Positions 13,504 through 44,055 of a DNA stretch of 64,000 bases are shown here, one piece after another. The notes below the pieces were generated by a model. That model was not told the origin of the DNA and did not search any database. It worked only from the letters and a program-made list of their open reading frames with translations. The DNA comes from Polyangium mundeleinium. Lineage in GTDB: Bacteria; Myxococcota_A; Polyangia; Polyangiales; Polyangiaceae. The DNA lies in NCBI RefSeq assembly GCF_028369105.1, contig NZ_JAQNDO010000001.1:1971711-2035710 (forward strand), given 5' to 3'. Both the position numbers and the translations under genes were made by a program. Each line of letters opens with the position of its first letter. Position 1 is the first letter of the stretch.

Positions 13504-13686
13504 GGGGCGAGCGCGTTAGCACATTTCCCCGGCCCAGCGGAAGCGCGCGACGAATCTGCGCCGCTCGGCCGCCCGCTGCCTCCGCGCCCGCCGTCCCCCT
13601 CGTGTCGCAAATGAGCCGCGAAGCCTCAAACCCTGGTAGAAGTGACGAACGCGGAACCATCGCGCGCCCCAGGGCCCCTCGAAGGC

Positions 13687-16600
13687 ATGAGCATGGTCAA
13701 GGTCGAGTGCGACGCCTGTAAGTCGCCGTACCAGGTGGAGGAACGACGGATCCCGGCGACGGGGCTCAAGATGCGCTGCTCCAAGTGCGGCAACAGCATC
13801 TTGGTGCGCAAGCCCGCGGAGGCCGCGGAGGGCCTCGGAGACGCCGAGGAGATCGATCTCCCCTCGCCGGTCGCGCCGCGCGCGAAGGCGGGCACCGAGC
13901 GGATGATGCCGCGCCCCGCGCCGGGCAAGGCGCCTGCCGCGCCGGTCGCGCCGAAGCCGCCCGTGCTCCCCGCCGTCAAGCCGAAGCCCGCTACGCCCGC
14001 ACCCGCGCCGAAGCCCGCCGCCGCGCCCGCGCCGAAGCCCGCCGAGGCCACGGAGCTCGAGCTGTGGAGCGGCGACGACGATCCTGGCTTCGGCGAGATC
14101 GATCTTCCCTCGCCCGCGAAGGCCACCGTGCGGCAGATGCCCGCCGCGTCCGTGCCCGCGCCCGAAGCCGAGGAGGAAGAGCTCGCGGACCTGCCCATGC
14201 CCGCGAAGGCCACCGTGCGGCAGATGCCCGCGGTCGTGAACGAATTCCCTCTCGATGATGAAGAGGAGGAGGACGCGGCGCTCGCGGCGATCGAGATGCC
14301 CGCGTCGTCGCCGAGCAAGCCGACGGTCCGGCAGATGGCGACCCCGGTGACGGCGTCGCTCGAAGTGGATCTGCCCTCGCCGTCGCCTTCGCCCTCGCCT
14401 GCGCGTGCGGCCGCGGCCAGGACGCCGCCGCCGCCGAGCCCTCCGAAGCCAGTCGACAAACCGACCGCGCCCGCGCGTCCTGCGGCGAAGGGTTTTGGCG
14501 AGATCGACCTGCCCTCGCCCGCGCGCCCCGCCGCGCCGAAGCCGCCGCCGCCGAAGCCGGACGAGAAGCTCACCGCGCCCGCGCGCCCCGCGGCCAAGAG
14601 CGCGCCCGAGCCCGAGGTCGATCTCCCGAGCCCCGCGCGTCCCGCGCGCCCCGCGCCGCCCGCGGCGAAGGGCTTCGGCGAGATCGATCTCCCCGCGCCG
14701 GCGAGGCCCCCCGCCGCGCGCCCCGCGCCGCCTGCGGCGAAGGGCTTTGGCGAGATCGATCTCCCCGCGCCGGCGCGCCCGCCCGCGAAGAAGGAGCCCG
14801 CCGATCTCCCCGCGCCGGCTCCGCCGGGCCCGAAGCACCGCTCCTCCGGCGCGACGCCCGCGGCGCTGCGCGCAAAACCCCTGAGCAGCTTCGACCTGCC
14901 TGCCGTCACGGCCGACACCGCGCTCGACCTCGGCGCGTTCGGCGAGATCGAACTGCCCGCGCCCGACCTCGGCACGTTCGGCGAGATCGAGCTGCCCACG
15001 CCCGATAGCGGCGCGTCGTTCGGCGACCTCGAGGCCCCGCTGTCGCCGCCCGCGGGCGCTGCGCGCAAGCTCGACCCCGGCGCGACCGTGCCGGTCGCTG
15101 CGATCGCGGCCTTCGACCCGGGCGACCTGAGCGAGCTCGAGTTCCCCCTCGCGAGTGCCCCTCCGCCTCCCCCTGCGTCCTCGCCGCGCGCCGCCGTGCC
15201 CGTGACGTCCGGCTTCGAGCTCGACGACGCGGCCTTCGACGCGGCCTTCGCCGATCCTCCGCCGAACAAGGCCGCCGCCGCGCCCAAGCCGCCCACGCCC
15301 GAGCCGCCGAAGAGCACGCGCGCCGCGGGCCCCATCTCGGCGCCGGGCGAGGAGTTTTCCCTCGGCGAGCCGGACATGGACCTCTCGACGGGCGCGCCGA
15401 TCAGCACGGGCGCGCCGCCCGCGCGCGCCCCCATCCACGCCGCCGACGAGCCCGACGAGCCCGCACCGCCGCCGGACAGCAGCGCCAGCATCGGCGACGA
15501 GGTCGACCTCGTGCCGGGCGAGTCCGACGGCCTCGACGCGCTCGGCAAGCGCGACAAAGCCCCGAAGAGCCTCGCCAAGCCCGCCGCCGGTGACAAGCGC
15601 CCCCGCGGACGTGGCCGTGTCTACGGCATCGGCGCGGCCGTCCTCATCGCGATCGGCGGCGGCGCCCTCGCGTTGCTCCCCGACATCGGCCCGTTCGGCG
15701 CGCACGCCGTGAGTGATCTCGTGAACGCCTCCGCGCACGCCGAGGCGCTCACCGGGCTCGAAAAGAACACGCAGGCCACGCTCGACGAAGACACCGCCGC
15801 CGCGGCCGCGCGCGGGCTGGAAGCTGCCAAGGCCGCGCAGCTCTCGCGCCCGCGCCACCGCCCGACGGCCGCGTATGCTGCGTTCGTCGCCTTCTCGCGC
15901 AGCCTCCGCCATGGCCGCCGCGGCGAAGACGAGACCCTCGGCAAGCAGCTCCTCGGCCAGACCGAGAGCCCGAGCCGCGAGCGCACCCTCGCCGTCGCCG
16001 CGCAACACGCGCTCGCGGGCCGCCTCGATCCGGCCCGCCGCCTCGCCAAGGACGCGCTCGACGCCGATGCGAACGACATCGACGCCGCTGTCCTCCTCGG
16101 CGAGATCGAGCTCGCCTCCGGCTCCATCGCCGACGCGCTCCCCGCCTGGAAACGCGCCGTCTCGATCCGCAAAGGCGCCCGCTCCCTCTACGGCCTCGCG
16201 CGCGCCGAGCTCGCGAAGGGCGACGCCGTGGCCGCCGAGAAGAGCGCCCGCGCCGCGCTCGAAGCCTCTCCGAAGCACGCTGGCGCCCGCACCTTGCTCG
16301 CCTCGATCCTCGGCCGCGACGCTGCCAAGGAAACCGAGGCCCTCGACCTCCTCGGCAAGGTCACGGCCGAGGGCGACATTCGTGCTTCCGGCAGCGACCG
16401 CGAGCTCGTCGACGCCTACCTCGAAACCGGCCGCATCCACCTCGCCCGTTCGCGCATCACCGCGGCCGAGCAGGCCTTCGCCGCCGCGCTCAAGATCGAC
16501 CCGCGCAGCGCCCCTGCGCTCATCGGCGACGGCGAGCTCTTCTACCGATCGAGCCGCTTCTCCCAGGCGCTCCTCCGCTTCGAGGAGGCCACGCGTGTCG

Positions 16601-18033
16601 ACGAGAGCAGCATCCCGGCCCGCATTGGCGCGACGAAGACCCTCCTCGCGCTCGAACGCCTCAAGGACGCGAAGGCGCTCGCCGAAAAGCTCCGCGCCGA
16701 CAAGCCCGACGCCGCCTCCTCCGCGTACTGGCTCGGCCGCGCCGAGGACGCGCTCGGCAACAAGAAAGAGGCCGAGGCCCTCTACCTCCAGGCCATCAAG
16801 CTCGGCGGCATGCAGACCGAGGCTGTCGAGGCGTACGTCGCGCTCGCCTCGATCCTCGCGGCCGCCGGCCGCAACGACGAGGCCCAGGCCAAGCTCGCCG
16901 AGGCCAGCGCGAAATTCCCCGACCTCGCGGCGCTCCACCGCGCGAAGGGCGAGGTCTTCTCGCAGGCGGGCCGTTATCCCGAGGCGCGCACCGAATTCGA
17001 GGCTGCGCTCGCCAAGGAGGACGACCTCGGCACGCGATTCCGCCTCGGCATCACGCTCCGCCGCATGGGCGCCTTCGAGGACGCGCAAAAGGTCTTCGAC
17101 CAGATCGCGGCCGTCGACAAGGCGTTCCCGGGCCTCTCGCTGGAGCGTGGCCTCTTGTACGAGGAGACGGGCCAGAGCGAGCGTGCGCTGGAGATGTATG
17201 CGGCGGCGCTGGAGAAGGCGCCGACGGACATCGACCTCAAAATGCGCGTCGGCTCGGCGCAGGTCATGGCGGGCCACGCGGCGCAGGCCGAGCCGATCCT
17301 GCGTGAGGTCTTGAAAGAGCGCGCCGGCTCCGCGGACGCGAACCATTTCCTCGGCCGGGCCCTGCTCTTGAAGGGCGGCAGCAGCGCCGCGGGCGAGGCG
17401 ATCCGCTTCCTCGAACGGGCCACGGAGATCGACGGCAATCGCGCCGAGTATTTCCTTTACGTCGGCTGGGCGGCGAACGTCCTCGGCCAGTTCCCGAAGG
17501 CCGAGGCGGCGTTGAAGCGCGCCTTGGAGCTCGATCGCGAGCTCGCGGACGTGTACTGGCAACGCGGCGTCTTGGCCCACAAGCAGGGCCGCACGCTCGA
17601 CGCCCTGGCGGACCTGGAGATCGCCTTGCAAAAGCGCCCCTCCCGGCACGAAGCGCACGCCACGATGGCGCTCTGTTACCAGGAGCTCGGCCGCTGGCCG
17701 GAGGCGCAGACGGCGTGGCAAAAGGCGATCGCCGGCAATGGCACGGTGGCCGAGTGGCATTACCGGCTCGGGAAGATCTTCGAATCGAACGGGAACAAGC
17801 TCGCGGCGACGCCGGAGCTCGACAAGGCCGTGGAGCTGCTCGCGCAGAAGGGCGGGCCGGCCGAGAACTGGCAGGCCGACGCGTATTTCCTCCACGCCGA
17901 GGCCATGCGCACCACGGGGCAAAAGGACAAGGCCGTGAAGAGCTACCTCCGGTTCAAGGAGGTGGCGACGATGGACAATGCGTACCGGACCGATGTGGAG
18001 CGGGCGTTGTTATCGCTGGGGCACGGGCCGTAG
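13687..18033 (+). CDS. MJ0042-type zinc-ribbon protein with a Pro-rich repeat region ('KGFGEIDLP[SA]PAR' x7 or more), a predicted transmembrane segment and a C-terminal TPR array.
   Basis: N-terminal 'MVKVECDACKSPYQV...MRCSKCGNSI' CXXC...CXXC. Repeated GFGEIDLP motifs. Hydrophobic 'VYGIGAAVLIAIGGGALALL'. TPR repeats over the C-terminal roughly 800 aa. Confidence 0.75.
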   Translation: MSMVKVECDACKSPYQVEERRIPATGLKMRCSKCGNSILVRKPAEAAEGLGDAEEIDLPSPVAPRAKAGTERMMPRPAPGKAPAAPVAPKPPVLPAVKPKPATPAPAPKPAAAPAPKPAEATELELWSGDDDPGFGEIDLPSPAKATVRQMPAASVPAPEAEEEELADLPMPAKATVRQMPAVVNEFPLDDEEEEDAALAAIEMPASSPSKPTVRQMATPVTASLEVDLPSPSPSPSPARAAAARTPPPPSPPKPVDKPTAPARPAAKGFGEIDLPSPARPAAPKPPPPKPDEKLTAPARPAAKSAPEPEVDLPSPARPARPAPPAAKGFGEIDLPAPARPPAARPAPPAAKGFGEIDLPAPARPPAKKEPADLPAPAPPGPKHRSSGATPAALRAKPLSSFDLPAVTADTALDLGAFGEIELPAPDLGTFGEIELPTPDSGASFGDLEAPLSPPAGAARKLDPGATVPVAAIAAFDPGDLSELEFPLASAPPPPPASSPRAAVPVTSGFELDDAAFDAAFADPPPNKAAAAPKPPTPEPPKSTRAAGPISAPGEEFSLGEPDMDLSTGAPISTGAPPARAPIHAADEPDEPAPPPDSSASIGDEVDLVPGESDGLDALGKRDKAPKSLAKPAAGDKRPRGRGRVYGIGAAVLIAIGGGALALLPDIGPFGAHAVSDLVNASAHAEALTGLEKNTQATLDEDTAAAAARGLEAAKAAQLSRPRHRPTAAYAAFVAFSRSLRHGRRGEDETLGKQLLGQTESPSRERTLAVAAQHALAGRLDPARRLAKDALDADANDIDAAVLLGEIELASGSIADALPAWKRAVSIRKGARSLYGLARAELAKGDAVAAEKSARAALEASPKHAGARTLLASILGRDAAKETEALDLLGKVTAEGDIRASGSDRELVDAYLETGRIHLARSRITAAEQAFAAALKIDPRSAPALIGDGELFYRSSRFSQALLRFEEATRVDESSIPARIGATKTLLALERLKDAKALAEKLRADKPDAASSAYWLGRAEDALGNKKEAEALYLQAIKLGGMQTEAVEAYVALASILAAAGRNDEAQAKLAEASAKFPDLAALHRAKGEVFSQAGRYPEARTEFEAALAKEDDLGTRFRLGITLRRMGAFEDAQKVFDQIAAVDKAFPGLSLERGLLYEETGQSERALEMYAAALEKAPTDIDLKMRVGSAQVMAGHAAQAEPILREVLKERAGSADANHFLGRALLLKGGSSAAGEAIRFLERATEIDGNRAEYFLYVGWAANVLGQFPKAEAALKRALELDRELADVYWQRGVLAHKQGRTLDALADLEIALQKRPSRHEAHATMALCYQELGRWPEAQTAWQKAIAGNGTVAEWHYRLGKIFESNGNKLAATPELDKAVELLAQKGGPAENWQADAYFLHAEAMRTTGQKDKAVKSYLRFKEVATMDNAYRTDVERALLSLGHGP

Positions 18034-18046
18034 GTAGGCCGCGGGC

Positions 18047-21000
18047 CTATTGAAAGCTCACCGAGATGTTGTCGAGGCCCCAGCCCTCGTCGCCGACGCC
18101 TTGCAGCATCATGGCGCCGAATTCGAACATGACCTCGCTCTGCGTGTGCGGCAGCGCGTGGCTCAGGTGGTAGACGGAGTCGAGCGGCTGGCCACTCCAC
18201 AGGTAGCCGAGTGAGTTCACCTCGGTCGCGCCCGAAAGGCCGGGGTGGGAGGTCGGCGGCGTGCCCCAGTTGTCCGGATACGACTGCGCCCCGTTTGGCC
18301 CGTTTGCGAACGTCGTGCCCATGACGAAGACGCTGTCCATCTTGAGCCCCCATCCATCCGGCCCGGCGTTGCCGTCCCAGCTCTGGATCACGTAGAGATC
18401 GAACGCCAGCGTGATGCTCTCGTGCGGCGGCAAGTGCGCGAGCGTCAGCTTCATCGTGTGGTTGTCGAACTGCCCCAGGAACTTCGTCGCTGGACGGCTC
18501 CCGCCGGGCGTCTCGGAGACGAGGGCGGCCGGCAGTGCGCCCGAGACGAGGCTCCATTCGGATCCCACCGCGCCCTCGAAATCGTTGAAGTAGCTCCCCA
18601 TCGTGGCGATGGGCAGGGGCGCGTTCACGAGCGCGGTTGCGTACGACGCGTCGTTCGTCGAGGCCACGTCGAGGATGCATGCATTGAGGAGCCCCGGGTC
18701 CGTGACGCCCGCCTGCGTGCAGACCTGCTCGGCGGCCGTGTACGCTGCGGGCTCGAGCGATTGCGCGCTCGTCGGCTGCGCCGGGAACGCCAGATCCGTG
18801 TACGTCGCCGTGCTCTCCCCTGCCGCATAGTCGAAGAGCGACTCCACCTGCGAGATTCTCCAGCCATCGGCGAAGGTGTCGTGCAGGACCTCGTGCGAGA
18901 GCGGCTGCTCGAGTGGTGTGCCGTCGCGCAGGGCGAACTCGTTCGAGGGGATCCCATCGAAGTTGCCGAGCAGGCCGCTGACCTGCCCCGAATGCAGGTC
19001 GGTGAGCTTCAGCTGGAGGTCGATGCGATCGCCGGGATGCACGCGGACGACCAGCTTGTCGCCGCTGCTCCAGCGCACCACGAAATCGTGACCGCGATAC
19101 GAGACCGTGCCGCCGTCGAGCGGGATGCTCCCGACGCTGGAGAGGGGCACTTCGGCGCCATCGACGACGAGGCGCATCGAGGGGCGCGCGTGGAGGGCCA
19201 CGCGCTGCAGGCCGACGCGCGCCGCTACCGCGGTGTTCACGGCGATCGAGTTCGAGCTGCCGACGGGCTCCTGGCGGACCTGGGCCGTCAGCGTCGGCGT
19301 CGCCGCGAGCACGAATTCCCCGACGGACTGGAGGTCGTACAAGAGCCCATCGAACGTGACGAGGTGGGGATCGCCCGTGCTGCCCCCGCCCGTCGTGGGC
19401 GGCTCGGGGTCGCCGCCGCCGCCTCCACCGCCACCCCCACCGCCGCCGTCGCCGCAACGTCCGCATACCGCGCAGGCATTGGGGCAGCAGTCGCCGAACA
19501 CGACGCAGAGCGGATCACAATGGCAGCCTCCGCCGGCGCTGTTGCATTCGTTCGGCGAGCAGAGGCCGTCGAAGCAGTCGACCGCGCAGCTCACGGCGTT
19601 CTCGTCCGCCTCGCAGACCCCGTTTCCGCAGCAGGTGGTCTCGGCGCTGCTCGAATAAAACCACGTGGGATCCCAGAAGCTCGACTTGACGACGCTCGCT
19701 TGCGTGGCGTTGTCGATGATGAAGCCGAACTCCGAAACGGCGCCCCCGCAGTAGCTATCCATGAGCCCGCCCGGGTAGAGGTTCTGCGAGCCGATGTAGA
19801 ACGCTTGCTCGTCGATCATCACGAACTTGGAGTGGTTCGTGTACTCGATCCCGTCCGCCCACGTGGGAGCGAAGGCGTGCCTGAACTCCGCGACGTGCAC
19901 CTTGCCGCAATAAAGCTGCTCCGCCGTGGCGTACCCGAGCGCGGCGAGCTCGCCCGGGGGGATGGGGTCCTCGAGGAAGAACTGTTCGAGCTGCTGGGCC
20001 GTCCAGTCGACCGTCCATCCATTCTGGTAAAACCCCCCATCGAGGACGATCTTGACCTCGACTCCGCGGCGGATCGCGGCGCGTAGCTTCTCCCAGAGTT
20101 GATCGGAATAGGAGTGGTACCGGCAAATCGGAGAGGCGAACAGATCTTGCTGGCTGATGAGGATCGACGTTTGCGCCGCGTCGATGAGCGCATAAAGCGC
20201 CCGGTCACCAGCCAGCGAATCGCCGACGTCTCCGATGTTGGTCCCCGAGGTGCCGACCGAGATGACGCGGAGACGGGCGTGCGGGATGCTGGGCGGCGCC
20301 GTGAACCGATCAAGACAAGCGCCAGCATTGAGGTGGATGGGGGTCTTGGGGACGCTGATCCAGTGCGCGGGCCATGCGTTCTCACAATCCATGTCCTGGA
20401 GCTGGTTTACGTACTGCTGCGCGTGCGCGGCGGCGGCGCCGCGGAGCCGAACGGAGAGATCGTGCACGGGCGACAGGCGGTCGATGTAATCGTGGGCCCA
20501 CAGATTGATCCCGCCCGCGATGACCTCTTGGCCATCCGCGGCGACGATCTTCGAGTGGTTGAGCGGGAAGTCCCAGAACACGAGATGGCTCGGCATCCTC
20601 CCTGCGGAGACGCGGATGCGAAGGTCGGCCAGGAAGGGCGCCGTCACCTTGTCGACGATCTCCTCTGGCTCGAGGCCGCCATGGCCCGTGACGAACCGGA
20701 CGTGCAGCCGGGGCGCCCAGGGCTCCGCCGGCGGCGGGATCGGCGCCTTGCTGTTCAGCTTCTCGAGGGCCCCGGTGATCGCCTCCAGGAATCTGTCGTC
20801 ATGGAACGACAGGCTCGTGATATCGACGTATTGCTCCCCGCTCAGGATGACGTCGACGATCTCGTGGAGGTAGTCGTCGGAGTGATTGAGCGGCAGGGCG
20901 TTGTTGCCCCACCACCGCTGGTGGGGGAACTGGAGCAGGCCGACCATCGTGTTGTTGCACGAGGAATCCCAGTAGCGGCCCGGGGGCTCGGCCGCGTCGA

Positions 21001-21222
21001 GCGCGGCGATGACCTGGTCCCCGATCGTCGAACCGTTGCACCAGAGCTGCAACGGCGGCGCCGGCACCTCCACCTCCACGGGCGCCTCTTTCCTCCCCTG
21101 CGGTCCCCCTGTCCACGGAGCCCCGTTGTTGTTGGCGAGGGCGCCGCTCGCGTGTGCTGCAATCGTGGACGCGGCGGCGAGCGCGAGACACGCCTCTCGG
21201 CGGAAACGATGTGTCTGTTTCA
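18047..21222 (-). CDS. Secreted phospholipase D-family (two HKD motifs) protein fused to a von Willebrand factor type D (VWD) domain.
   Basis: Signal peptide 'RREACLALAAASTIAAHASGA' with a GTG start near 21222; the ORF in the track is extended 5' through the repeat array. HKD motifs 'NHSKIVAAD' and 'NHSKFVMIDEQ'. Cys-rich module, poly-Gly linker, and VWD signature 'GDPHLVTFDGLLYDLQSVGEFVL'. Confidence 0.75.
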
Positions 21223-21411
21223 CGGGGAAACCTCCGGGACGGAACCATGACGAGACGAACGCGAAGGCGAACGCGAAGGGGGGATGCTCACATCCGCATG
21301 GGTTGATCAAGATATTTGTAGGCGGGCTGAGGATGTTCGCGGGGGCTATGCCAAGGGGACGGGCGGGATTGGCGTCCACGCCCGGGGCAACGTGAACGAG
21401 GTGCCGAGAGG

Positions 21412-21905
21412 TCGAAGGCACGCTCGCCGGGCTTGTCGCAAGGGCTGGGAGGTTGTCGACGTGCTCGCCGGGCATGTCGGCAAGGGCTGGGGTGGTTGTC
21501 GACATGCGCGCCGGGTTCGTCGGCAAAGGCTGGGGAGGTTGTCGACATGCGCGCCGAGCTCGTCGGCAAGGGCTGGGGTGGTTGTCGACATGCGCGCCGG
21601 GCTCGTCGGCAAGGGCTGGGGTGGTTGTCGACATGCGCGCCGGGTTCGTCGGCAAAGGCTGGGGAGGTTGTCGACATGCGCGCCGGGCTTGTCGGCAACG
21701 GCTGGGGACTTTGTCGACATGCGCGCCGAGCTCGTCGGCAAGGGCTGGGGAGGTTGTCGACGTGCGCGCCGGGCTCGTCGGCAAGGGCGGGGGAGGTTGT
21801 CGACGTGCTCGCCGTGGTGGCCGGCAACGGTTGGGGACTTTGTCGACATGCTCGCCGGGCTCGTCGGCAACGGTTGGGGACTTTGTCGACATGGTCGCCC
21901 GTGGT
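21412..21905. repeat. Approximately 12 tandem copies of a 43-bp direct repeat (consensus cgccgggctcgtcggcaagggctggggaggttgtcgacatgcg), each containing the palindrome TGTCGACA.
   Basis: GTCGAC recurs with an exact 43-bp period (21455, 21498, 21541, 21584, 21627 and onward). The period is not a multiple of 3, and there are no intervening unique spacers. Confidence 0.9.
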
Positions 21906-22153
21906 TGCCGGGGGGGAGTCCCGTAATTACGGCAGTCGGAGTCCAAATGACGGCAGTCTGTACCGCCCTTTCACCCGCCCTCGACCCGCTCCCCTGAACA
22001 CGTGTGCTCGGATCGACCGTGATTGGCCCGGCTTGCCCGCGTCGGAGAGCGCGCCCGCGACGTCGCTCCTCCCGCTTGGATCGATCGGATGCGCGCGGTG
22101 GTCGTGGGATGTTGACAAGGCTCCCGGGGGTGACGTAAGCTGATATACGGGAC

Positions 22154-22384
22154 ATGCGGACCTTTCTTGCACTCTTCTGTGTAGCGGTCCTCGTGGAGGG
22201 GTGCGTTGACGAGCCCAGGAGGCGACCACCCTGCACGGATCCAGACGAATGTGCCGTGCAACGAGACAACTGCTTCAACGGCTGCGCCCAGCGTCATGCC
22301 CCAGTAAGCTGTGCAGATTGCTGTAACAGTGTGTTCAGGAGCTGCGATGATTGCAAATCATGGAACTTCGAGTCGTGCAGGTGA
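22154..22384 (+). CDS. Small secreted cysteine-rich protein (76 aa, 13 Cys) in a low-GC islet.
   Basis: Signal-like 'MRTFLALFCVAVLVEGC'. Dense Cys pattern. Local GC is lower than the surroundings. No recognizable family. Confidence 0.35.
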   Translation: MRTFLALFCVAVLVEGCVDEPRRRPPCTDPDECAVQRDNCFNGCAQRHAPVSCADCCNSVFRSCDDCKSWNFESCR

Positions 22385-22790
22385 CTCGTTCAAACCCGGA
22401 CTCGCAGCCATCCTCGTGGGCGGACTGCTCGCATTGTTCTGCGGATGCGGACGAAATGCGCCCCATCAACTCGTCCTGCGATACGATGAGGTGGCCCACG
22501 TGAGTGGATGCAACATCCGCCTCATTCAGATCACCATCCGTGACGATGGCTACGAGCCGTTCGCGGCTCTCAATTACAATTGCGGAGGCTTACCGGAGTC
22601 GGACCTGTTCGAGAAGAATTGGTCGAAGGACTATCTCCCGCCCCTCGGGTTCACGATGAACGTCGGGGATTGTCAGCTCTTCAAGGACACGTTCTACTGC
22701 GTCGAGGCCATCGAAACCGACAAGGTGACGCTCCAGGCGACGTACAAGTGGGCCAACCCAGACCATTCGCGAATCGAGCGGATCAAGTAA
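22347..22790 (+). CDS. Hypothetical secreted/lipoprotein in the low-GC islet.
   Basis: Hydrophobic 'LAAILVGGLLALFCGC' signal. The start is uncertain and overlaps the preceding small ORF. No family recognized. Confidence 0.4.
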   Translation: MIANHGTSSRAGDSFKPGLAAILVGGLLALFCGCGRNAPHQLVLRYDEVAHVSGCNIRLIQITIRDDGYEPFAALNYNCGGLPESDLFEKNWSKDYLPPLGFTMNVGDCQLFKDTFYCVEAIETDKVTLQATYKWANPDHSRIERIK

Positions 22791-23012
22791 TCTGCAAAGG
22801 CCCCGCCCCATCCACGCGCCTGTGCATCTCCAGGCACGCCTGATCCACCATCCCGCGCATCATCCGCGGCGCGACCCCGAGCACCGGACGCCCTGAGACG
22901 CATAACGGGCATTCCGCGCGGACGTCGCGGATCCGGGCCAACTCCACGCAGGAGCACGGCTGGCCGAAGTCAGCGGGTCGCCTCACGGGGGCTGCCGCCC
23001 TTCATCGAATCA

Positions 23013-23864
23013 TCACGGGCCGCTCGAGAGCCGGTACGTCGCGATCCATTGGTAACGGCTGCTCCGCGGCAGTTCGGAGGGATCGAAGGCGCCGGCCCAT
23101 GGCACCGCGTCCGAAACCCACAGGTTGGCCCGCACCTCTTGCGGGTGCTCGAGTTCACGCAAGATCACCGCGTCGGTGAAGCGGTGCAATTCGCGCCCGT
23201 CCACCCAGTAGGCGATGCGATCGGGCAGCCATTCGATCTCCCAGGTGTGGAAATCGGCGGAAGCATCGAAGTCGAGGTCCACCCTCTTCTCCGTTTGGTG
23301 CTTCGTCCCGCCATCGTCCACCCAGTGGAGCGCAAACTGCACGGCTTGGGTCCCGCCGACGAACTCGATGTCGATCTCGGCGGTCTCGAGCAGCTTCGTG
23401 TAGCTGGCGTCGAACTGGTAGAAGGCGGTGAAAAACGAGGCGACCATGCCCGGGCGGGCGGTGGGGCGCATGCGCGTGAGGAAGCGCCCGAACTTCTGCG
23501 CGCCGGTCCGAGCGTACTCCGCGCCCAGAATCGTGCGATCCGAGTCGATGACGGTGTCGCCGCGCGCGGTGAGCCACAGATCGAGGGCGCCCTCGCTGGT
23601 GCGGACGTTCGAGGGATGGAGCCAGGCGAGGTTCGAGCCAAAGGTCCAGTCACCGAGCGTCGAGGGACCGAGCCCCTGCTCGAAATCATCCAACCACGAG
23701 AGCTCGTACGCGATGCCGCCGCGCGTGGCGCGTGGGGGGAGCTCGCTCTCGTGCGTGGGGGCGAGGTCGCCTTGGGGCGAATCGGGGAGGTCGGTTCGTG
23801 GAGCAGGAGCCGGTGCGCAAGCCGCGGCGAGGGCGGCCGAGCAGAGGACGAGCGTGGCGCGCAT
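23013..23864 (-). CDS. Glycoside hydrolase family 16 (beta-glucanase/laminarinase-like) lipoprotein.
   Basis: Signal/lipobox 'LAAACAP'. GH16 catalytic motif 'EIDIEF' in a beta-jelly-roll-like context. Confidence 0.8.
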   Translation of the reverse strand: MRATLVLCSAALAAACAPAPAPRTDLPDSPQGDLAPTHESELPPRATRGGIAYELSWLDDFEQGLGPSTLGDWTFGSNLAWLHPSNVRTSEGALDLWLTARGDTVIDSDRTILGAEYARTGAQKFGRFLTRMRPTARPGMVASFFTAFYQFDASYTKLLETAEIDIEFVGGTQAVQFALHWVDDGGTKHQTEKRVDLDFDASADFHTWEIEWLPDRIAYWVDGRELHRFTDAVILRELEHPQEVRANLWVSDAVPWAGAFDPSELPRSSRYQWIATYRLSSGP

Positions 23865-23937
23865 CCTGCGGAGTGTAGGCGCGGGGAGGGAGGGGAGGAA
23901 GCGGTGGGTGGTGGGCGCCCACCCATCACGCCACAGC

Positions 23938-26325
23938 CTACGCCCTTGGCCGTCGCCGCAGAAGGAGCCATGCAGCGATCACCAGCCACCCCGTGGGGCC
24001 CGTCGGCGAGCCGCTCGTGCCGCAGCCGCCGCTCGTCGGTCCTTCGCCTTTGGCGCCGGTATCCCCGCCTTCCCCTCCGTCAGCACCGCCGCCGCCCTCA
24101 CTGCCGCCGCCTGCGCCGCCGTTCCCCAGGCACACGCCCGACTGGCACGTCCCCAGGCTGCAAGGTGTCCCGTCGGGCTTGGCTGCGCTCCCGCAGCCGG
24201 TTTGCGGGTCGCACGCGCTCGCCTCGTGGCATTCGTCCGGCGCCACGCAGACCAGGGGGTTCCCGGTGCACAGGCCGCTCTGGCAAGCATCCGCCTGCGT
24301 ACAGAGATTGCCGTCGTCGCACGGGACGCCATCCGGCGCCGGTCCATCCGCCGGGCATGCGCCCATGTCGCCGGAGCAGACCTCGGGCGCATCACAGGTG
24401 CCTGTCGCCGCGCGGCATTCGGTCCCGGCCGCGAGAAGGGTGCATTGGCCGATGGAGCCAGGGACGTTGCAGGCCTGGCAATCGTCCGTCGCCCCGTCGC
24501 CGCACGCCGTATCGCAGCAATGGCCGTCGACGCAGAACCCCGTCGGACAAGTGTCCGCCGATGAACACGCGGAGCCCGCGGGGCCCGTGTAAAGGAGGGC
24601 CCCCAGGGCCACGGTGCTGCCTGTCACAAAGCCGCCCGCCACGAGCACACGACCGTCTTGCAAGAGCGTGGCCGTTTGCCGGTATCGCACGCCGTTCATG
24701 GATACCGTGCCCATGAAATCACCGAGGTGGAGGCTGTAGAGCTCTGCGGTCGCCAGAGCCCCGCCCACCGTCCCCGCGCCGCCCACGAGGAGGACGTACC
24801 CCGTCGGCAGGAGCGTCGCCGTGTGTTGCGCCCGCGCGGCGAGCATGGGGGGGAGGGTCGACCATTTGCTGGTGGCCCGGTCGAAGACCTCGGCGGTCTT
24901 GAGCGCGACGGTCCCGACGCCATAACCGCCGGAGATCAGCACCTTGCCGCCCGGGAGCGCGACGGCCGCGAACGACTCCCGGGCCGTCTCGAGGGGCGGC
25001 AAGCTGGACCAGGTATTCGCGGACGGATCGTAAATCTCGGTCTCCGCCAGGTGGGTTGCGGAGTTGCCGACGCCACCGGTGACGAGCACCTCTCCGCTCG
25101 ACAGGAGCACCGCGGCGTGGCTCGCGCGGGCGAGCGCGAGCGGCGCCGTGGGTTGCCACGTGTTCGTGGCCGGATCGAAGACCTCCGCGCTCGCCACGCG
25201 GGTGGGCGTACCGGTGTTGAGCCCGGCGGTGATGAACACCCGGCCGTCCTGCAGCTTCGTGGCCTGGTGCCTCGTCCGCGCCGTGCTCATGGACGGCAGC
25301 GTCGTCCACGTCGCCGTGGCGGGGTCGTAGGCCTCGACGGTCGCAGAAGAGGCGCCGCTGAGCCCCCCGCCCGTGACGAGGACACGCCCATCGTCGAGCA
25401 GGTTCGCCGTGTGGAAGGCGCGCGCGTTGACCATCGACGCTGTGTAGGACCATTGGTTCGTGACCGGGTCATAAAGCTCGGCCGATTTGCCGGTCGTGGT
25501 GACGCTCGAGCCTCCCACGACCAGGACCCTGCCGTCCTGGAGCAGCGTCGCCGTGTGGAGATCGCGCCCGGCCTGGAGCGAGCCTGCCGGCGACCACAAG
25601 GGGTCGATGAGCAGCGCAGAAGCAAAAGGCGCATCGACCATCAGATCGATGAAATGGCCCCGCGCCACGAGCCGCACGGCGACCTCGCCTCCGCCTTCGG
25701 CGTACGCCACGGGGGCGGTCACCTGGATGCGCGCGTGGCCCTGGCCGTCGACGATCTGCACGGCATGGGCGGCCTGCCGGACCTCGGCGCCGTCGATTTC
25801 CCAGGTCGCCACGGCTTCACCCGCGCGCGTCGCTCCGGGCTCGACGTGGAGCCACTCCTCGAGGCCGCCGGCCGCGAGCGTCCAGAAGGATGTGCCCCCG
25901 GCGCGACGATAGGCAATGGCGCGGTCCGCCGGCGCGGCCTCGCCCTCGCGCCCGAGCTCGCGGACGTGAAAGGAAAAGCCGCCGGGCAAGGACATACGAA
26001 GGGGCTGATCGGATGCCCGTGGCAGCTCGACGCCGAGCGCGCCCCAGTGGGCTTCGCCGGGAGCCGGCAGGCCCCGGACGAATGCGCCGTCCCGCGCGGC
26101 GAAGAGCTGCTCGGCTTCGAGCACGGGACGGGAGCGTTCGGGGAAACGAAGGCGGAGACGCGTGGCTTCATGAGAGGCGGTCGGCTGGGAATGCGCGAGG
26201 CTTTCGAGCGAGCCCTCGTCCGGGTTGCTTTCGCTGCTGCAACCGAGCCCTCCCAAGGGCGCGCTCGCAACCGTCGCAGCGAACACCATGGGGGCGAGGT
26301 GTTGGAAGGATGGGCGGAGGTGCAT
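23938..26325 (-). CDS. Kelch-repeat beta-propeller surface protein with a myxobacterial Cys-rich repeat module and a MYXO-CTERM sorting signal.
   Basis: Multiple 'DGRVLV.GG' Kelch motifs. 'CPTGFCVDGHCCDTACG...' Cys-rich repeats. C-terminal 'GGCGTSG...WLVIAAWLLLRRRPRA'. Confidence 0.8.
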   Translation of the reverse strand: MHLRPSFQHLAPMVFAATVASAPLGGLGCSSESNPDEGSLESLAHSQPTASHEATRLRLRFPERSRPVLEAEQLFAARDGAFVRGLPAPGEAHWGALGVELPRASDQPLRMSLPGGFSFHVRELGREGEAAPADRAIAYRRAGGTSFWTLAAGGLEEWLHVEPGATRAGEAVATWEIDGAEVRQAAHAVQIVDGQGHARIQVTAPVAYAEGGGEVAVRLVARGHFIDLMVDAPFASALLIDPLWSPAGSLQAGRDLHTATLLQDGRVLVVGGSSVTTTGKSAELYDPVTNQWSYTASMVNARAFHTANLLDDGRVLVTGGGLSGASSATVEAYDPATATWTTLPSMSTARTRHQATKLQDGRVFITAGLNTGTPTRVASAEVFDPATNTWQPTAPLALARASHAAVLLSSGEVLVTGGVGNSATHLAETEIYDPSANTWSSLPPLETARESFAAVALPGGKVLISGGYGVGTVALKTAEVFDRATSKWSTLPPMLAARAQHTATLLPTGYVLLVGGAGTVGGALATAELYSLHLGDFMGTVSMNGVRYRQTATLLQDGRVLVAGGFVTGSTVALGALLYTGPAGSACSSADTCPTGFCVDGHCCDTACGDGATDDCQACNVPGSIGQCTLLAAGTECRAATGTCDAPEVCSGDMGACPADGPAPDGVPCDDGNLCTQADACQSGLCTGNPLVCVAPDECHEASACDPQTGCGSAAKPDGTPCSLGTCQSGVCLGNGGAGGGSEGGGGADGGEGGDTGAKGEGPTSGGCGTSGSPTGPTGWLVIAAWLLLRRRPRA

Positions 26326-26640
26326 GCGTACGGAGATCCTGGTTGATGGTTGGCTGTCTGCGTAGGTTGCCACGCTACAGGAAGTTACGACCCGGAGGAA
26401 GATGAACGCTCACGACCCCCCTTTCAGTCCAAGTTCGTCTCCCAATCCTCGAAGGGTGGCTCTACGACGTACGCCGCGTCCACGTAGCTCCGGATGTACT
26501 GGGCGGCGTGGTTCTCCGCCTGCTTTGCATTGCGTACGACGCCCTCCTCGTCCAGCTCGAGCACGTTGACGAAGAGCGCGCACGTCATCTCGACCGACTC
26601 TGTTATATGCGACTCCATGAACGGTATGTCGATTTCATCG

Positions 26641-28167
26641 ATGTTGCGTAGGCGCCCGCTCGTGCTCCTCGTCGGGGCCTTTCTTTCCCTCGGAGGCACG
26701 CGTGCCCTGGCGTCCCCCGTCCCCGTGGCGCAGTTCAATTGGACCCAGCAGCAGAAGCTCTTCATCGAGAACCCGATGGTCGGCGATCTCGCCGCGCAAG
26801 CGATCGGCCTCTCCGGCGATGTCATCATCGTCGGCGCGGCCGAGGCCGACCTCAAGGGGAGCCGATCCGGCGTGGCGCAGGTCTTCGTGCGAGCGGGAGG
26901 CTCCTTCGCCCCGACGCAGACGCTCTCCCCCGACGACGGGCAGCCCGACGACTATTTCGGCCACGCGGTCGACGTGGACGGCGATATCGCGATCATCAGC
27001 GCAGCCTTGGACGACGACAATGGGTTGAACAAAGGCTCGGCCTATGTGTACGCCCGGAGCGGGGGCGTCTACACGATGCAGCAGAAGCTCTTGGCACCTC
27101 CGGCGACCCTCGGCAGCTACGCATCCACCGTGGCCGTCAGCGGGACGACGATCCTCCTGGGGGGCGAGGGCAGCGGAGGTTTCGTGTATACCCAGAGCGG
27201 CTCGACCTGGTCGCTTCAGCAGAAGATCGCGCCGGCCGACCACGTCACGACGCATTTCGGCAATGCCGTCGACCTCTCCGGCGACACGGCCATCATCGCG
27301 GCATTCGCGGATCCCACGATGAGCGTCGATGGTGGCTCGGCCTCTCTCTATGTGCGCAGCGGCGCGACCTGGACGGAGCAACAAAAGGTCTTCCCGTCCG
27401 ATCCGACGGTAGGGCAAAACTTCGGGTATTCGGTCGCCATCGACGGCGATACGGCGGTCGTGGGCGCCATCGGCGACAGCGAGAAGGGGACGTGGGCCGG
27501 CGCGGCGTATGTCTTCGTCCGCAATGGCGTCACGTGGAGCCAGCAGCAGAAGCTCGTCGCGAGCGACGCGCAGGAGAGAGCGCAGTTCGGGTGGGGCGTC
27601 GCGGTGCAGGGGGACAGGGTGCTCATCGGGACCCCCACGATGAAGACGGCCGTGACGCAGCCGGGAGCGGCGTACGTCTTCGAGAGGAGCGGCGGCGTCT
27701 GGACCGAGGCGAACAAGCTCACGGCCTCGGACGCGGTGGCGGTGGAGAACAGGTTCGGCTGGTCTTGCCGTCTCGACGGCGAGACGGCGGTCGTCGGCGC
27801 GCCCAGCGATGCAGAAAAAGGCGGCTCCTCGGGCGCGGCGTACGTGTTCGCGATGGAGATGGGCGGGTCCGGTGGAATGGGCGGGGCCGGCGGAATGGGC
27901 GGGGCCGGCGGCGCGGGTGGGTCCGGTGGAATGGGCGGGTCCGGCGGAATGGGCGGGTCCGGCGGAATGGGCGGGTCCGGCGGAATGGGCGGGTCCGGCG
28001 GCGCTCCGTCGACGGAGGAGAGCGGCTGCGGCTGCCGGATGGCCGGCGCGGAGCGAGGCGGCGGGGCAGCATGGTTGCTCGCGCTGGGAGGGGTGGTCCT
28101 CGCCGGGAGTCAGCGGCGCGCGCGCTCCCGGAGCATTGTGCGGCGGGGCGACGGCTCGACGTTCTAG
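26641..28167 (+). CDS. FG-GAP (integrin-alpha-like) repeat protein with a GGMGG low-complexity linker and a MYXO-CTERM signal.
   Basis: Signal peptide 'MLRRRPLVLLVGAFLSLGGTRALA'. Repeated 'FG.AV...GD...IGA..' motifs. 'ESGCGCRMAG...LAGSQRRARS' at the C-terminus. Confidence 0.75.
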   Translation: MLRRRPLVLLVGAFLSLGGTRALASPVPVAQFNWTQQQKLFIENPMVGDLAAQAIGLSGDVIIVGAAEADLKGSRSGVAQVFVRAGGSFAPTQTLSPDDGQPDDYFGHAVDVDGDIAIISAALDDDNGLNKGSAYVYARSGGVYTMQQKLLAPPATLGSYASTVAVSGTTILLGGEGSGGFVYTQSGSTWSLQQKIAPADHVTTHFGNAVDLSGDTAIIAAFADPTMSVDGGSASLYVRSGATWTEQQKVFPSDPTVGQNFGYSVAIDGDTAVVGAIGDSEKGTWAGAAYVFVRNGVTWSQQQKLVASDAQERAQFGWGVAVQGDRVLIGTPTMKTAVTQPGAAYVFERSGGVWTEANKLTASDAVAVENRFGWSCRLDGETAVVGAPSDAEKGGSSGAAYVFAMEMGGSGGMGGAGGMGGAGGAGGSGGMGGSGGMGGSGGMGGSGGMGGSGGAPSTEESGCGCRMAGAERGGGAAWLLALGGVVLAGSQRRARSRSIVRRGDGSTF

Positions 28168-28192
28168 AGCGCCGAACAGTTCGGCGCTCTGC
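28168..28192. terminator. GC hairpin (gagcgccgaa cagt tcggcgctc) immediately after the stop codon; probable intrinsic terminator.
   Basis: 10-bp perfect stem starting 2 nt after the TAG at 28165-28167. Confidence 0.45.
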
Positions 28193-28287
28193 GAGATCGC
28201 GAAGCGAGCTCGCCTCGGGGGGTGAATCGGCCGGGCTCCGCCTGGCCGAGAGGGGGACGCGAGGCGTCCCCCTAGGGACGAAAGAAG

Positions 28288-28330
28288 CCTAGAACATCGA
28301 GCGGTTGTCAAACCGATCGATGTTCTAGGC
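28288..28330. promoter_or_regulatory. AT-rich 13-bp perfect inverted repeat CCTAGAACATCGA-N16-TCGATGTTCTAGG in an intergenic region; candidate operator or terminator.
   Basis: Seen directly in the sequence. The composition is strikingly AT-rich relative to the surrounding roughly 70% GC. Confidence 0.5.
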
Positions 28331-28612
28331 GGCCCCCACGCAGCCCGCGCTCCTGCCCTCCAGCGACCTTCGCGGTTCGCGGCCGGGCTCGGTCTGGCGG
28401 GTCCGCGAAGGCCATTCAAAGCAAGACGCGTGGGCGTGATGCGGGACGACCTGGCCCCGTGACGGTGACCTCTCGACGCCCGTCGCCATCGCTGCGGACG
28501 GCCGACTTGCGGCCCTCGGCGAGCGGCTCAACGTTCGGTCATGACGGGACCGAGCGGCGCGCGGAAAGAACCCTGCGCGGCGCGAGGGGACCACACGCGA
28601 GGGGGGCCGACG

Positions 28613-29689
28613 ATGACCCGACAATCGAGAAAGCCGAGAGGAGACTGGGAGCGTCGAGGGATCATCTCCCTGGGTTTGATCTTCGTGGGGCTGTCGTTCG
28701 TGGCATGCGACGAAAGCCTCGGGCAACGAGCGCGTATGGGAGGCGCGTGCCCGCCCGGGGAGATCTGCTCGGAGCAGACGCCGAGGGGCCTGGTATTCTT
28801 TGGCGCGCGGACATTCAACGATGCGGAAGCCAATGAACGCCTCGCCACGGCCCTTGGGGGCACGCAGACGATGTTCCTCCGCTACCCGGAGCCGCCCTAT
28901 GATCCCTTCGTGGCTGGCTTCAAGGCGATGCTCGTCGATTCCAGGGCTGCCGCGATCGAATCGAGTGGCGCCGCCTCGGTCGTCCTGCGAGGTGTCTCCG
29001 AGGGCCAATCCTTGCTGCGACTCCTCGAGCCAGGGACGAACAAGCTACTCGACCGGTACGCGATCAAGGTTGCGCCCGTCGCGCGTGTCGCCCTGCTCCC
29101 GCGGGAGCTTCGGGAAGAGGATGCGGACGTCGTGCGCTGGAAGGTGCTCGCCGGGAACCCGGCCTTGCTCGGGGTCCTGCTCTTCGACCCGAATGACCAC
29201 CAGCTCGTCGACGAGGGGCTCGAGGTGCGCGCCCACGCGGCAGAGGTCTCGCGGCATGCGTGGGATCTCTTCCAGGTCACGGTGGTGATCTCGGGGGAGC
29301 GGGTGCTCCTCACGATGCGGGCGGGCGACCGTTCCTTTGTCTCCAACGTGGAGGTCGCCTCGTCGGTCGACGCCATCGCCCTGCGATCCCCCGCGGCCCC
29401 GGAGGAGGGGCGCCCCATCGAGATCAAACGCGGAGCGCCCGGCACGCAGCTCTGCTTTCGCGCAGCCTCGAACAGCACCACGGTGGTCGGGGCGACGTGG
29501 GAGTTCCGCCCGTCCGAGACCGTCTCGATCGAGCGTCCGGAGCCGCCGTCGGGGGAGGAACTGTTGAATACGCCGCTCTGGACGACGCCGGGCTGCGTGA
29601 CGCTCTCCGGGAGGGAGGTCGGACCCGCGACGCTCGGGGTCACTGCGAGCAGCCACTTCGAGATGTTCAAGCTTCTCGTGGTCGAATGA
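28613..29689 (+). CDS. Hypothetical lipoprotein.
   Basis: Canonical lipobox 'LSFVAC' after a basic N-terminus. No family recognized. Coding-like codon bias. Confidence 0.5.
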   Translation: MTRQSRKPRGDWERRGIISLGLIFVGLSFVACDESLGQRARMGGACPPGEICSEQTPRGLVFFGARTFNDAEANERLATALGGTQTMFLRYPEPPYDPFVAGFKAMLVDSRAAAIESSGAASVVLRGVSEGQSLLRLLEPGTNKLLDRYAIKVAPVARVALLPRELREEDADVVRWKVLAGNPALLGVLLFDPNDHQLVDEGLEVRAHAAEVSRHAWDLFQVTVVISGERVLLTMRAGDRSFVSNVEVASSVDAIALRSPAAPEEGRPIEIKRGAPGTQLCFRAASNSTTVVGATWEFRPSETVSIERPEPPSGEELLNTPLWTTPGCVTLSGREVGPATLGVTASSHFEMFKLLVVE

Positions 29690-30094
29690 CCCCTGGAGGG
29701 TCCGATGAAATCATGGCTCACGGTGTTCGTCGCGCTGGGCTCGATCGATCGGCCCGAGTCATCGAAGGCTCCGACGTAGATCGGTTCCGGGTGCGTGGGC
29801 GTGAACGAATACCCGATGGTGCCAGCGCTCTCGCATGTGGCCGGCTCGTCGTGGCTCGTCGTGGTGCGTGACATATCGACGGTATCGACTTAAGGCACGC
29901 TCCGGATGACCGTCGCGTCGCGGAGAAGGCGCGAAGACCCGCCGCAAGAACCAGGTCGCGAAAGCCACGCCCGTGTCGAGCGACGGCACGTCATCGCCTC
30001 GCGCGCCCTCTATGCGCTTCTCTCCTCCACTGGCTCGTGGTACAGGTCCCTACCACGATTGGGCAGTATGTGCTGCCACAGTGGATGAGGTGTT

Positions 30095-34189: not shown

Positions 34190-34512
34190 CCATGGTCGCG
34201 GTGCAGGACGCGAAGCTCTTCGACCAGATCATCAAGCTCACCGCCAAGCAGTGGTACGAGCAGCGCGAGCAGATGCGCCGGGATTTCCCGAGCGGCACCG
34301 CGTTCACCGAGTGGGATTGGGAATTCGTCCCGGGCCAGGCGCCCCCGCCCATGGTCGTCGAGGTCGACGGCAAGGCCGTCGGCGCCGTCATCTTTGCCAA
34401 TTATCGCTCGCCCGGCGATCATCGCTTTCGAATCGGACCGCAACGCCGGATGCGGGTCGACCTCGGCGACGACGACCTCGTCGTGAGCCCCCTCGATGCT
34501 CCGGAGGAATGA
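34048..34512 (+). CDS. tssJ: Type VI secretion lipoprotein TssJ-like.
   Basis: Lipobox 'LGLGCSS'. About 155 aa. 'ANRNSPVPMTMVAVQDAKLF' resembles the TssJ 'sG.pSPvvvRvYqLk...F' core. Sits immediately upstream of tssK. Confidence 0.6.
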   Translation: MGRARWIAALALALPLGLGCSSGPPATRFLVEVAITAKANRNSPVPMTMVAVQDAKLFDQIIKLTAKQWYEQREQMRRDFPSGTAFTEWDWEFVPGQAPPPMVVEVDGKAVGAVIFANYRSPGDHRFRIGPQRRMRVDLGDDDLVVSPLDAPEE

Positions 34513-34513
34513 C

Positions 34514-35842: not shown

Positions 35843-35846
35843 GGGG

Positions 35847-40650: not shown

Positions 40651-40664
40651 GAGACAGAGCCTCG

Positions 40665-42428: not shown

Positions 42429-42448
42429 GCCGCGCGGAGGGTACGAAC

Positions 42449-43951: not shown

Positions 43952-44055
43952 CGGGCCTCGCAAATCAGTGTAGGGTATGATCAGGAAGTTACCGCCCCGC
44001 GCTCGAACGGAGCGCGCGGGCGGTGACCGTCGACGGGGACGCGGAGGAGTGAACG

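Follow-up and report, generated by a model that had tools for sequence, protein, structure and literature searches.

A 43-bp tandem array of Polyangium mundeleinium as a likely member of a dispersed, genus-wide minisatellite family

Introduction

The stretch analyzed here, called the window below, comprises 64,000 nucleotides of Polyangium mundeleinium (assembly GCF_028369105.1, contig NZ_JAQNDO010000001.1, positions 1,971,711 to 2,035,710 of the forward strand), and coordinates are counted from its first letter. It contains an array of 43-bp tandem repeats located upstream of a minus-strand gene for a protein with PLD and VWD domains (PLD-VWD). A first-pass annotation, made from the letters alone, had taken the array as a possible regulatory platform, promoter-spacing element or recombination hot spot. 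The comparison with related genomes makes it likely that the array is one locus of a genus-wide, dispersed, non-coding 43-bp minisatellite family, of the BOX type or of the MIRU type of variable-number tandem repeat (VNTR).

Results

Features of the locus

The array and its immediate neighbors are arranged as follows.

13642–18033, plus strand: conserved zinc-ribbon/TPR gene (Pfam; orthologues with 76–100% identity in Polyangium)
18034–21376, minus strand: lineage-specific cassette, consisting of the PLD-VWD gene and its own upstream region (21227–21376)
18047–21226, minus strand: PLD-VWD gene (Pfam PLDc_2, PLDc, VWD)
21339–21353, minus strand: predicted sigma-54-like -24/-12 element TGGCATAGCCCCCGC, inside the cassette that appears to have been inserted
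21392–21439, plus strand: left-end module GTGAACGAGGTGCCGAGAGGTCGAAGGCACGCTCGCCGGGCTTGTCGC, a degenerate first unit with TCGAAGGCAC in place of TTGTCGACAT
21440–21912, plus strand: core array of 11 head-to-tail units, exactly 43 bp each
21913–22029, no strand assigned: 117-bp segment right of the array, carrying the palindrome CCGTAATTACGG and two direct repeats, GGAGTCC and ACGGCAGTC
22154–22384, plus strand: cysteine-rich open reading frame (ORF) of 76 residues with a lipoprotein-like N-terminus (...LVEGC), the right-hand neighbor of the array

Structure of the array

Tandem Repeats Finder describes nt 21425–21893 as a repeat of period 43 with 11.0 copies, 89% matches and 0% indels. The GTCGAC motif occurs 11 times, first at 21455 and 21498 and last at 21885, and all ten intervals are exactly 43 bp. 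The unit consensus is AGGGCTGGGGAGGTTGTCGACATGCGCGCCGGGCTCGTCGGCA. A degenerate leading unit stands in register at 21397–21439, as part of the left-end module beginning at 21392; the module aligns directly with the unit (z = 11), and the reverse complement of the unit does not align. The 12 × 43 bp of perfect period in the first-pass annotation is right when this degenerate unit is counted with the 11 in-register ones. The palindrome that it placed in every unit holds for TTGTCGAC, present in 11 of 11, and does not hold for the full TGTCGACA, which is found in 8 of 11, the other three carrying TGTCGACG. All eight sites of TGTCGACA in the window are within the array. The 33-nt core of the unit, with up to three mismatches allowed, gives 8 matches, versus 0 in 100 shuffles, and has no copy outside the array in the 64-kb window. 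The array ends with GTCGACATGGTCGCCCGTGGTTGCCGGGGGGG, as does its orthologue in P. sorediatum, and the GC content across and beside it is 66–70%.

Pairwise differences amount to 0–6 bases among the central units and 7–17 bases for the edge units. Because the central units differ by a few bases and the edge units by more, the tandem array is regarded as genuine and not collapsed. The inter-unit differences thus argue against an assembly-collapse artefact, the first-pass annotation's own suggestion of how the array might prove spurious. The longest contig of the P. mundeleinium assembly is 13.2 Mb, which suggests that the assembly is complete or near-complete. The units abut without spacers and Rfam gives no CRISPR direct-repeat match, in agreement with the earlier view that the array is not CRISPR. 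An Rfam scan of the whole window was in fact without any match, and scans for sigma-70 promoters and terminators in nt 20900–22500 found nothing beyond the shuffle expectation.

No stop triplet occurs in the array on either strand at any offset, and therefore six open frames run across it. These frames are what the idea of a translated repeat rests on, be it part of the PLD protein as an N-terminal extension (ORF 18047–21946) or a repeat protein of its own; one frame reads VDMLAGLVGNGWGG, with high GC at third positions. However, the 43-bp period changes the frame at each unit, and the variable positions are spread over first, second and third codon positions alike, with no third-codon bias. 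On the minus strand, GTG 21226 is the likely start of the PLD-VWD gene; it is preceded by the ribosome-binding site GGAGG and gives a product of 1059 residues. A homologue of 1061 residues covers 100% of this product, which supports the start at GTG 21226. The array is 171–686 bp upstream of this start and outside the gene, so that its position 5′ of the minus-strand PLD-VWD gene, 171 bp from the likely start, is as first described. Moreover, in P. sorediatum the array exists without any PLD gene. Translation of the repeat is effectively refuted; the array is non-coding and the ORFs through it are artefacts, as the first-pass annotation had held.

History of the locus

The TPR gene to the left allows the site to be followed in other genomes; the loci fetched for comparison are given by their L numbers. 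The TPR protein of the window matches a P. mundeleinium protein with 100% identity at 99% query coverage, and orthologues of 76–93% identity are encoded by P. sorediatum, Polyangium sp. y55x31, sp. 6x1 and P. spumosum. The genes left of the TPR gene are syntenic in the relatives (L058–L061). At this site P. sorediatum has no PLD gene; behind its TPR stop codon come 75 bp, then the left module and about 10 units of the subtype seen in the window. The PLD gene is likewise missing at the site in sp. 6x1, where 95 bp separate the stop codon from a minimal element made up of the left module, one unit and the right module. No array follows the TPR gene in sp. y55x31, P. spumosum and one ENA contig. 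The only close homologue of the PLD protein is that of sp. 6x1, with 66% identity, and it lies in an unrelated neighborhood that has no array.

On either side of the array, the metagenome contig L051 matches the window with 95% identity. Its array has about 2 units (the left module and one unit), and 170 bp separate the PLD upstream region from the array. This spacer includes a 109-bp copy, 96% identical, of the very end of the TPR gene with its stop codon. Compared among relatives, the site downstream of the TPR gene has 11–12 copies in the window, about 10 in P. sorediatum, about 2 in L051, 1–2 in sp. 6x1 and 0 in the others (n = 3).

By the simplest explanation, the array at first stood behind the TPR gene, and the cassette 18034–21376 was inserted between them later, in the mundeleinium lineage. 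Because P. sorediatum and sp. 6x1 carry the element after the TPR stop codon without PLD, the array would be older at this site than the PLD cassette, and its position upstream of PLD would therefore be an accident of history. With the element present without PLD in two relatives, the proposal that the array serves the PLD gene as a regulatory platform or as a promoter-spacing element is not supported.

On the right side of the array, the 117-bp segment (nt 21913–22029) is missing from the 95%-identical L051 and has no match in any fetched locus. ACGGCAG-like motifs are also seen directly right of the arrays L030 and L017. The low-GC islet that the first-pass annotation had noticed beside the array is real: about nt 22200–22800 have 55–58% GC, versus about 68% around, and the 76-residue ORF lies at the islet start. 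The left part of the islet, up to window nt 22339 where the L051 contig ends, is 95% identical in L051, and the 76-residue ORF is conserved there with the same identity. Neither this ORF nor the overlapping islet ORF of 159 residues has a Pfam match.

A dispersed repeat family in Polyangium

The family scan covered one genome per bacterial or archaeal species and looked for two TTGTCGACRTG cores 38–48 bp apart. Polyangium sp. 6x1, sp. 15x6, sp. y55x31, P. fumosum, P. jinanense and a Polyangium metagenome-assembled genome (MAG) were positive, and the myxobacterial matches of this core-pair scan were from Polyangium only. A metagenome scan added six further arrays, all from a single soil sample. 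Counting P. sorediatum, which also has an array, the family extends to at least eight species of Polyangium, besides the soil metagenome contigs.

The family arrays consist of 4–12.4 units of 43 bp with the common consensus GTCGACATGCTCGCCGNGSTYGYCGGCAACGGCTGGGGNNNTT (Tandem Repeats Finder). The window consensus is identical to the consensuses of 14 other arrays at 33–41 of the 43 positions, the P. fumosum array L009 being identical at 41, and a hidden Markov model built from the window units detects the units of other arrays. Comparison of the flanks yields at least nine distinct loci, several of which occur in 3–5 genomes. All family arrays are intergenic, and L009 is located between convergent genes. 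Such a distribution of the unit over at least nine unrelated loci, one of them between convergent genes, speaks against a role specific to PLD. At least five loci are found in sp. 6x1 (L002, L019, L040, L042 and L062), and at least three each in P. fumosum, P. jinanense and sp. 15x6. Copy numbers are 12, 11 and 4.9 at L003, L040 and L043, and 9.0, 11.8, 8.8 and 9.9 at L012, L041, L042 and L044, respectively. No gene class is consistently found beside the arrays, and the GC skew of the flanks shows no consistent sign relative to the array orientation.

The ends of the arrays are conserved as well. The left-end module GTGAACGAGGTGCCGRGAGGTCSAAGGCA is also found in L012, L041, L042, L051, L058 and L062 and partly in L009, loci that are non-orthologous. 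A right-end module of about 55 bp, GTCGACACAGRTCGTGRAGGT..TCGACRCGCCGGTYGGTGGTCG, is present in L002, L003, L012, L042, L044, L052, L055 and L062; it is not in the window array and is thus a feature of a subset of loci. The architecture can be written as L-(U)n-R, with n ranging from 1 (L062) to about 12. There are no terminal inverted repeats, as the left module compared with the reverse complement of the right module gives z = 0.85.

A blastn search with the array found no match among 72,556 plasmids or 50,697 phages, and a pattern scan of viral contigs was negative. Seven single-unit metagenome matches (L045, L046, L048, L050, L053, L054 and L057) were rejected as apparent chance matches in coding-looking DNA; three of the seven read VDGRAVLVGN. 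In the literature searched, no description of such repeats was found for Polyangium, Sorangium or myxobacteria. The family is apparently undescribed so far, while as a dispersed minisatellite it belongs to a known kind of element.

Two further kinds of arrays were observed. In sp. 15x6 (L024, nt 6181–6663) there is a related array of 21/22-bp units, GTCGACATGCTCCCGGCGGWC, that has the 12-mer GTCGACATGCTC in common with the 43-bp family; it suggests that the 43-bp unit may have derived from a box unit of about 21.5 bp. Arrays of 41–42 bp with a CATGTCGACAA core were met in AT-rich Bacteroidota and Treponema (L018, L025, L036, L004, L005 and L010). One Sphingobacteriales MAG, JADJTE, has at least three such loci (L018, L025 and L036) with 8–14 copies, and some of the 41–42 bp arrays are built of half-units of about 21 bp. 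The shared 11-mer core in these Bacteroidota and Treponema arrays is probably an effect of the design of the search pattern.

The sigma-54-like element and the array

The array could still be an enhancer, that is, a multimerised upstream activating sequence at which an enhancer-binding protein activates a sigma-54 promoter of PLD-VWD. A distance of 113 nt separates the predicted element TGGCATAGCCCCCGC from the PLD start downstream of it, and 44 bp separate it from the array. The pattern TGGCAYRNNNNYYGC has two matches in the 64 kb, versus 0.61 expected, the other one at 46203–46217 on the plus strand, within the type VI secretion cluster. It was also reported that myxobacterial enhancer-binding proteins (PexR) bind tandem palindromic repeats upstream of sigma-54 promoters (PMC12754779). 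However, the array is older at this site than the PLD cassette, of which the predicted promoter is a part. Around about 20 other arrays, the 600 bp on each side contain no such promoter by the strict pattern and two weak ones by a looser pattern. The PLD homologue of sp. 6x1 has neither array nor sigma-54-like promoter, the array of L051 is reduced to about 2 units and placed 170 bp further away, and L009 lies between convergent genes. Known upstream activating sequences have 3–5 sites, compared with 11–12 here. An enhancer function for PLD, which would be a local co-option, is therefore judged very improbable.

Arrays at synteny breakpoints

When two array loci share one flank, the other flank is unshared in 24 of 26 pairs, and in several pairs the shared side is collinear for 3.6–5 kb. 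For example, the P. jinanense locus L017 has the right flank of sp. 6x1 L042 and a different left flank, and the right flank of P. fumosum L033 is found inverted in sp. 15x6, 4.3 kb from an array. In P. jinanense, the array L043 has been shortened to 4.9 units, and directly beside it are small regulator-like genes that its orthologues lack. Inspection by eye of the ORFs in nt 1–1980 of L043 found one helix-turn-helix-like and one sigma-factor region 4-like product; their place in the orthologous loci of sp. 15x6 and sp. 6x1 is taken by a lipoprotein gene. The small ORFs of L043 could be a mobile-element insertion at the array.

The present array, too, borders a variable region. The interval from the TPR gene to the type VI secretion cluster (nt 18034–34400) has a different set of genes in each Polyangium species examined (L058, L059, L061 and L062). 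The window has PLD-VWD, GH16, Kelch and FG-GAP genes in this interval, and the relatives have unrelated genes. The interval behaves like a hypervariable island. The recombination hot spot considered in the first-pass annotation is supported in the form of a correlation, through the copy number of 0 to 11–12 at orthologous sites and the breakpoints at arrays.

Variation and constraint within the unit

For the alignment, 136 units from 15 arrays were used, with no prior selection for similarity. The variable positions are mostly 7, 17, 19, 21, 23, 34, 39 and 41 of the 43, and the GTCGAC core, GGCAA and GGG are almost invariant across the 136 units. The consensuses of all 15 arrays are identical at 27 of 43 positions. 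Their mean identity between arrays is 87%, versus 70% for the PLD gene pair at fourfold-degenerate sites. Two related boxes, TTGTCGACA and TYGYCGGCAA, are found in each unit. Their centers are 21 and 22 bp apart, equivalent to two helical turns, and the whole unit makes about four turns. CpG and TpG alternate at positions 7, 17, 21 and 34; no variation is seen at other CpG sites, among them that of the core. The evidence for constraint on the unit is suggestive, not proof, because the units share descent and several of the variable sites are CpG/TpG.

A purely neutral or selfish minisatellite, whose conservation reflects shared ancestry and homogenization, would agree with the free variation of copy number and presence among relatives, with the degenerate edges, with the lack of a consistent class of adjacent genes, and with hypervariable positions that are mostly CpG transitions. 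On the other hand, homogenization within an array does not account for the agreement between loci at 27 of 43 positions in 15 arrays whose hosts are only 70% identical at fourfold sites, and other CpG sites, that of the core included, do not vary. We consider the neutral explanation unlikely.

Could the array act as RNA? As a structured 3′ untranslated region or intergenic transcript of the G-rich strand, it would stabilize or terminate mRNA like REP/BIME or BOX RNA. At about 7 of 9–10 distinct loci, a gene that has the G-rich strand as its sense strand ends 20–120 bp before the array; the orientation bias is weak (about 8/10, sign test about 0.05). A 5-unit stretch folds better than shuffles on the plus strand (z = -4.1) compared with the minus strand (z = -1.3), a result attributed to the palindromes of different units pairing together, and TTGTCGAC can pair with GTCGGCAA through one G-U pair on the plus strand only. 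In contrast, single units do not outperform shuffles in folding, structures differ between the main sequence variants, and the minimal element gives a z of -1.8, not significant. No compensatory changes were found in three candidate stems; for the candidate pair 5–23, there are 91 units with A-T, 37 with the mismatch A-C and one with G-C. Some of the upstream genes have their own hairpins ahead of the array, and the Rfam scan was empty. Coding and conserved RNA structure are both unsupported because there is neither a codon pattern nor a compensatory base-pair change, and we hold a function as RNA to be highly improbable.

Other features of the window

A complete-looking type VI secretion cluster occupies nt 34487–46868 on the plus strand, with VasE/TssK, DotU, IcmF, ImpA, VipA, VipB, Hcp, gp25 and TssF, and a VgrG-like gene is at 54204–56270 on the opposite (minus) strand. 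The secreted PLD-VWD protein, encoded 13 kb from this cluster, could be an effector. A second array of 11 copies, at nt 50944–51407, has a period of 42 bp with 94% matches and is coding: it encodes the 14-residue repeat PDAKAAVPGAPAGV in a protein of 1279 residues with weak apolipoprotein-like matches. Short in-frame glycine-rich repeats of 18 bp and 9 bp are found at 27859–28001 and 33474–33568, inside large secreted-protein genes; one host is an FG-GAP protein and the other a protein of 1366 residues without Pfam match.

Several candidate readings of the unit were rejected. A possible G-quadruplex on the G-rich strand and possible Z-DNA at CATGCGCGC were judged by eye, and neither is conserved in the family. 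The unit and the left module were also tried by eye as sigma-54 or extracytoplasmic function (ECF)-type promoters, and the spacings do not fit. An iteron-type replication origin was discarded as well, the window having no DnaA box, no AT-rich region beside the array and no rep gene in Pfam scans.

Discussion

The likely identity of the array as one locus of a dispersed minisatellite family raises the question of how such a family changes. The canonical element consists of a degenerate left module, 1 to about 12 units of 43 bp and, at several loci, a right module. Because the center of the arrays is homogeneous, the edge units are divergent and the copy number differs among relatives, array size probably changes by replication slippage and unequal crossing-over between units. 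The dispersed copies may be prone to breakage or ectopic recombination, which could account for the gene-order breaks between species at the arrays. About two thirds of the unit is identical everywhere, and GTCGAC is accompanied by a second box 21/22 bp away, which suggests recognition by a protein: the units may be read by a putative sequence-specific, probably dimeric, DNA-binding protein, sitting on roughly one helix face every two to four turns, as SopB does on sopC. A protein-binding platform in general, one of the ideas raised at first for the array, is possible.

A number of points weigh against this picture or limit its reach. The array counts per genome are lower bounds. Short-read assembly may have capped the copy numbers, which cluster at 11–12, and the array of L051, with its 2 units, could be partly collapsed. 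Variation along the unit is non-uniform with a chi-square of 1232 (42 degrees of freedom, 136 units), a value that overstates significance since the units are not independent samples, and the uneven conservation could partly come from recent ancestry, gene conversion between arrays or CpG-transition hot spots. The location of arrays at synteny breakpoints is a correlation over array-bearing loci only. Finally, any function beyond that of a repeat family is something that we infer.

One bolder idea would connect the breakpoints with function. The arrays would be sopC-like phased platforms for a putative Polyangium-specific binder, and large nucleoprotein complexes formed at about a dozen chromosomal sites beside conserved genes would act as domain boundaries or as entry and exchange points of islands, so that the breakpoints would follow from function and not from mere repetitiveness. 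We regard this idea as rather improbable.

A related proposal takes the arrays as centromere-like or nucleoid-organizing sites, which a ParB/SopB-like or nucleoid-associated protein would coat to partition, insulate or organize the 13-Mb chromosome. The period of 43 bp, the copy number of about 12, the palindrome in each unit and the conservation of the whole unit are all as in sopC; the core is invariant among species and arrays are kept at orthologous sites in several of them. Yet no ParA, ParB or CbiA domain was found by Pfam in about 28 scanned ORFs of the window, the window has neither parS nor SopB box, and the palindrome is 8–10 bp instead of 16 bp and unrelated in sequence. The plasmid and phage collections gave no blastn match, the copies drop to 0–2 at the same locus in relatives, which argues against an essential site, and sopC-type centromeres are known from enterobacterial plasmids only. 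Such a role is distinctly improbable.

The likely assignment to a dispersed minisatellite family has several consequences. It corrects the annotation, in that the array is to be annotated neither as a regulatory element of PLD nor as part of the PLD ORF, and it defines an apparently new repeat family in a genus with very large and poorly studied genomes. The loci could be used as VNTR markers for the typing of Polyangium strains. The arrays are likely trouble spots in short-read assembly, and they can serve as landmarks of genome plasticity, for instance in the variable region beside the type VI secretion cluster.

Comparison with known systems

REP/BIME elements and plasmid iterons are protein-bound extragenic palindromic units or repeats phased at 21–22 bp. 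BIMEs alternate inverted REPs, and iterons adjoin a rep gene or origin with an AT-rich region and DnaA boxes. Unlike in BIMEs, all Polyangium units are head-to-tail.

The upstream activating sequences of PexR in Myxococcus xanthus (PMC12754779) also belong to a myxobacterium and, as at the present locus, are palindromic repeats standing in tandem ahead of a sigma-54-type promoter. They are different in having 3–5 regulon-specific sites, whereas the 11–12 units here belong to a family otherwise without sigma-54 association and to an array older than the promoter cassette.

The BOX elements of Streptococcus pneumoniae are composite repeats of the form boxA-(boxB)n-boxC (PMC3049150). Both families are dispersed intergenic composites with an internal module, boxB or the 43-bp unit, tandemly repeated between conserved ends; in both, slippage or unequal crossing-over alters the length between strains, and effects on neighboring genes are suspected. 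The sequences are unrelated. The end modules in Polyangium are direct degenerate copies of the unit, with no terminal inverted repeats or stem, and the family is seemingly of low copy (at least five per genome), versus more than 100 BOX elements. The Polyangium arrays are also longer, with up to about 12 units, and have a palindromic core in each unit.

The MIRU-VNTRs of Mycobacterium tuberculosis are tandem repeats of 46–101 bp at 41 loci (PMC3914561). They share with the Polyangium family the organization in related arrays with units of tens of bp, dispersed over tens of intergenic sites in a high-GC chromosome, a copy number that is polymorphic in close relatives, and an orientation of the arrays that often follows the flanking genes. 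No sequence relationship exists, and the Polyangium unit is composed of two palindromic boxes two helical turns apart. MIRUs, as Supply et al. are said to have described in 1997/2000, embed small ORFs that overlap the stop and start codons of their neighbors. In-phase ORFs of this kind are impossible in Polyangium, since 43 is not a multiple of 3.

By geometry the closest match is sopC of the F plasmid, with 12 direct repeats of 43 bp, each containing a 16-bp inverted repeat bound by SopB; the unit is about four helical turns long and conserved as a whole, although only 16 bp are bound (PMC3177203). The differences are considerable. The TGGGACCRYGGTCCCA box is missing from the window, neither sopA/sopB nor parA/parB is nearby, and the Polyangium palindrome is 8–10 bp, versus 16 bp. 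The known relatives of sopC are on enterobacterial plasmids, whereas the Polyangium arrays are chromosomal, present at many loci and dispensable at a given locus; the chromosomal context of the window is evident from the type VI secretion cluster, the TPR genes and the synteny with four Polyangium chromosomes. The likeness lies in the period of 43 bp, the nearly equal copy number and the palindrome in each unit. By this analogy, sopC may be the best model for the working of a phased protein-binding array of such shape, and if a specific binder exists, the Polyangium family would be a chromosomal counterpart of the sopC architecture.

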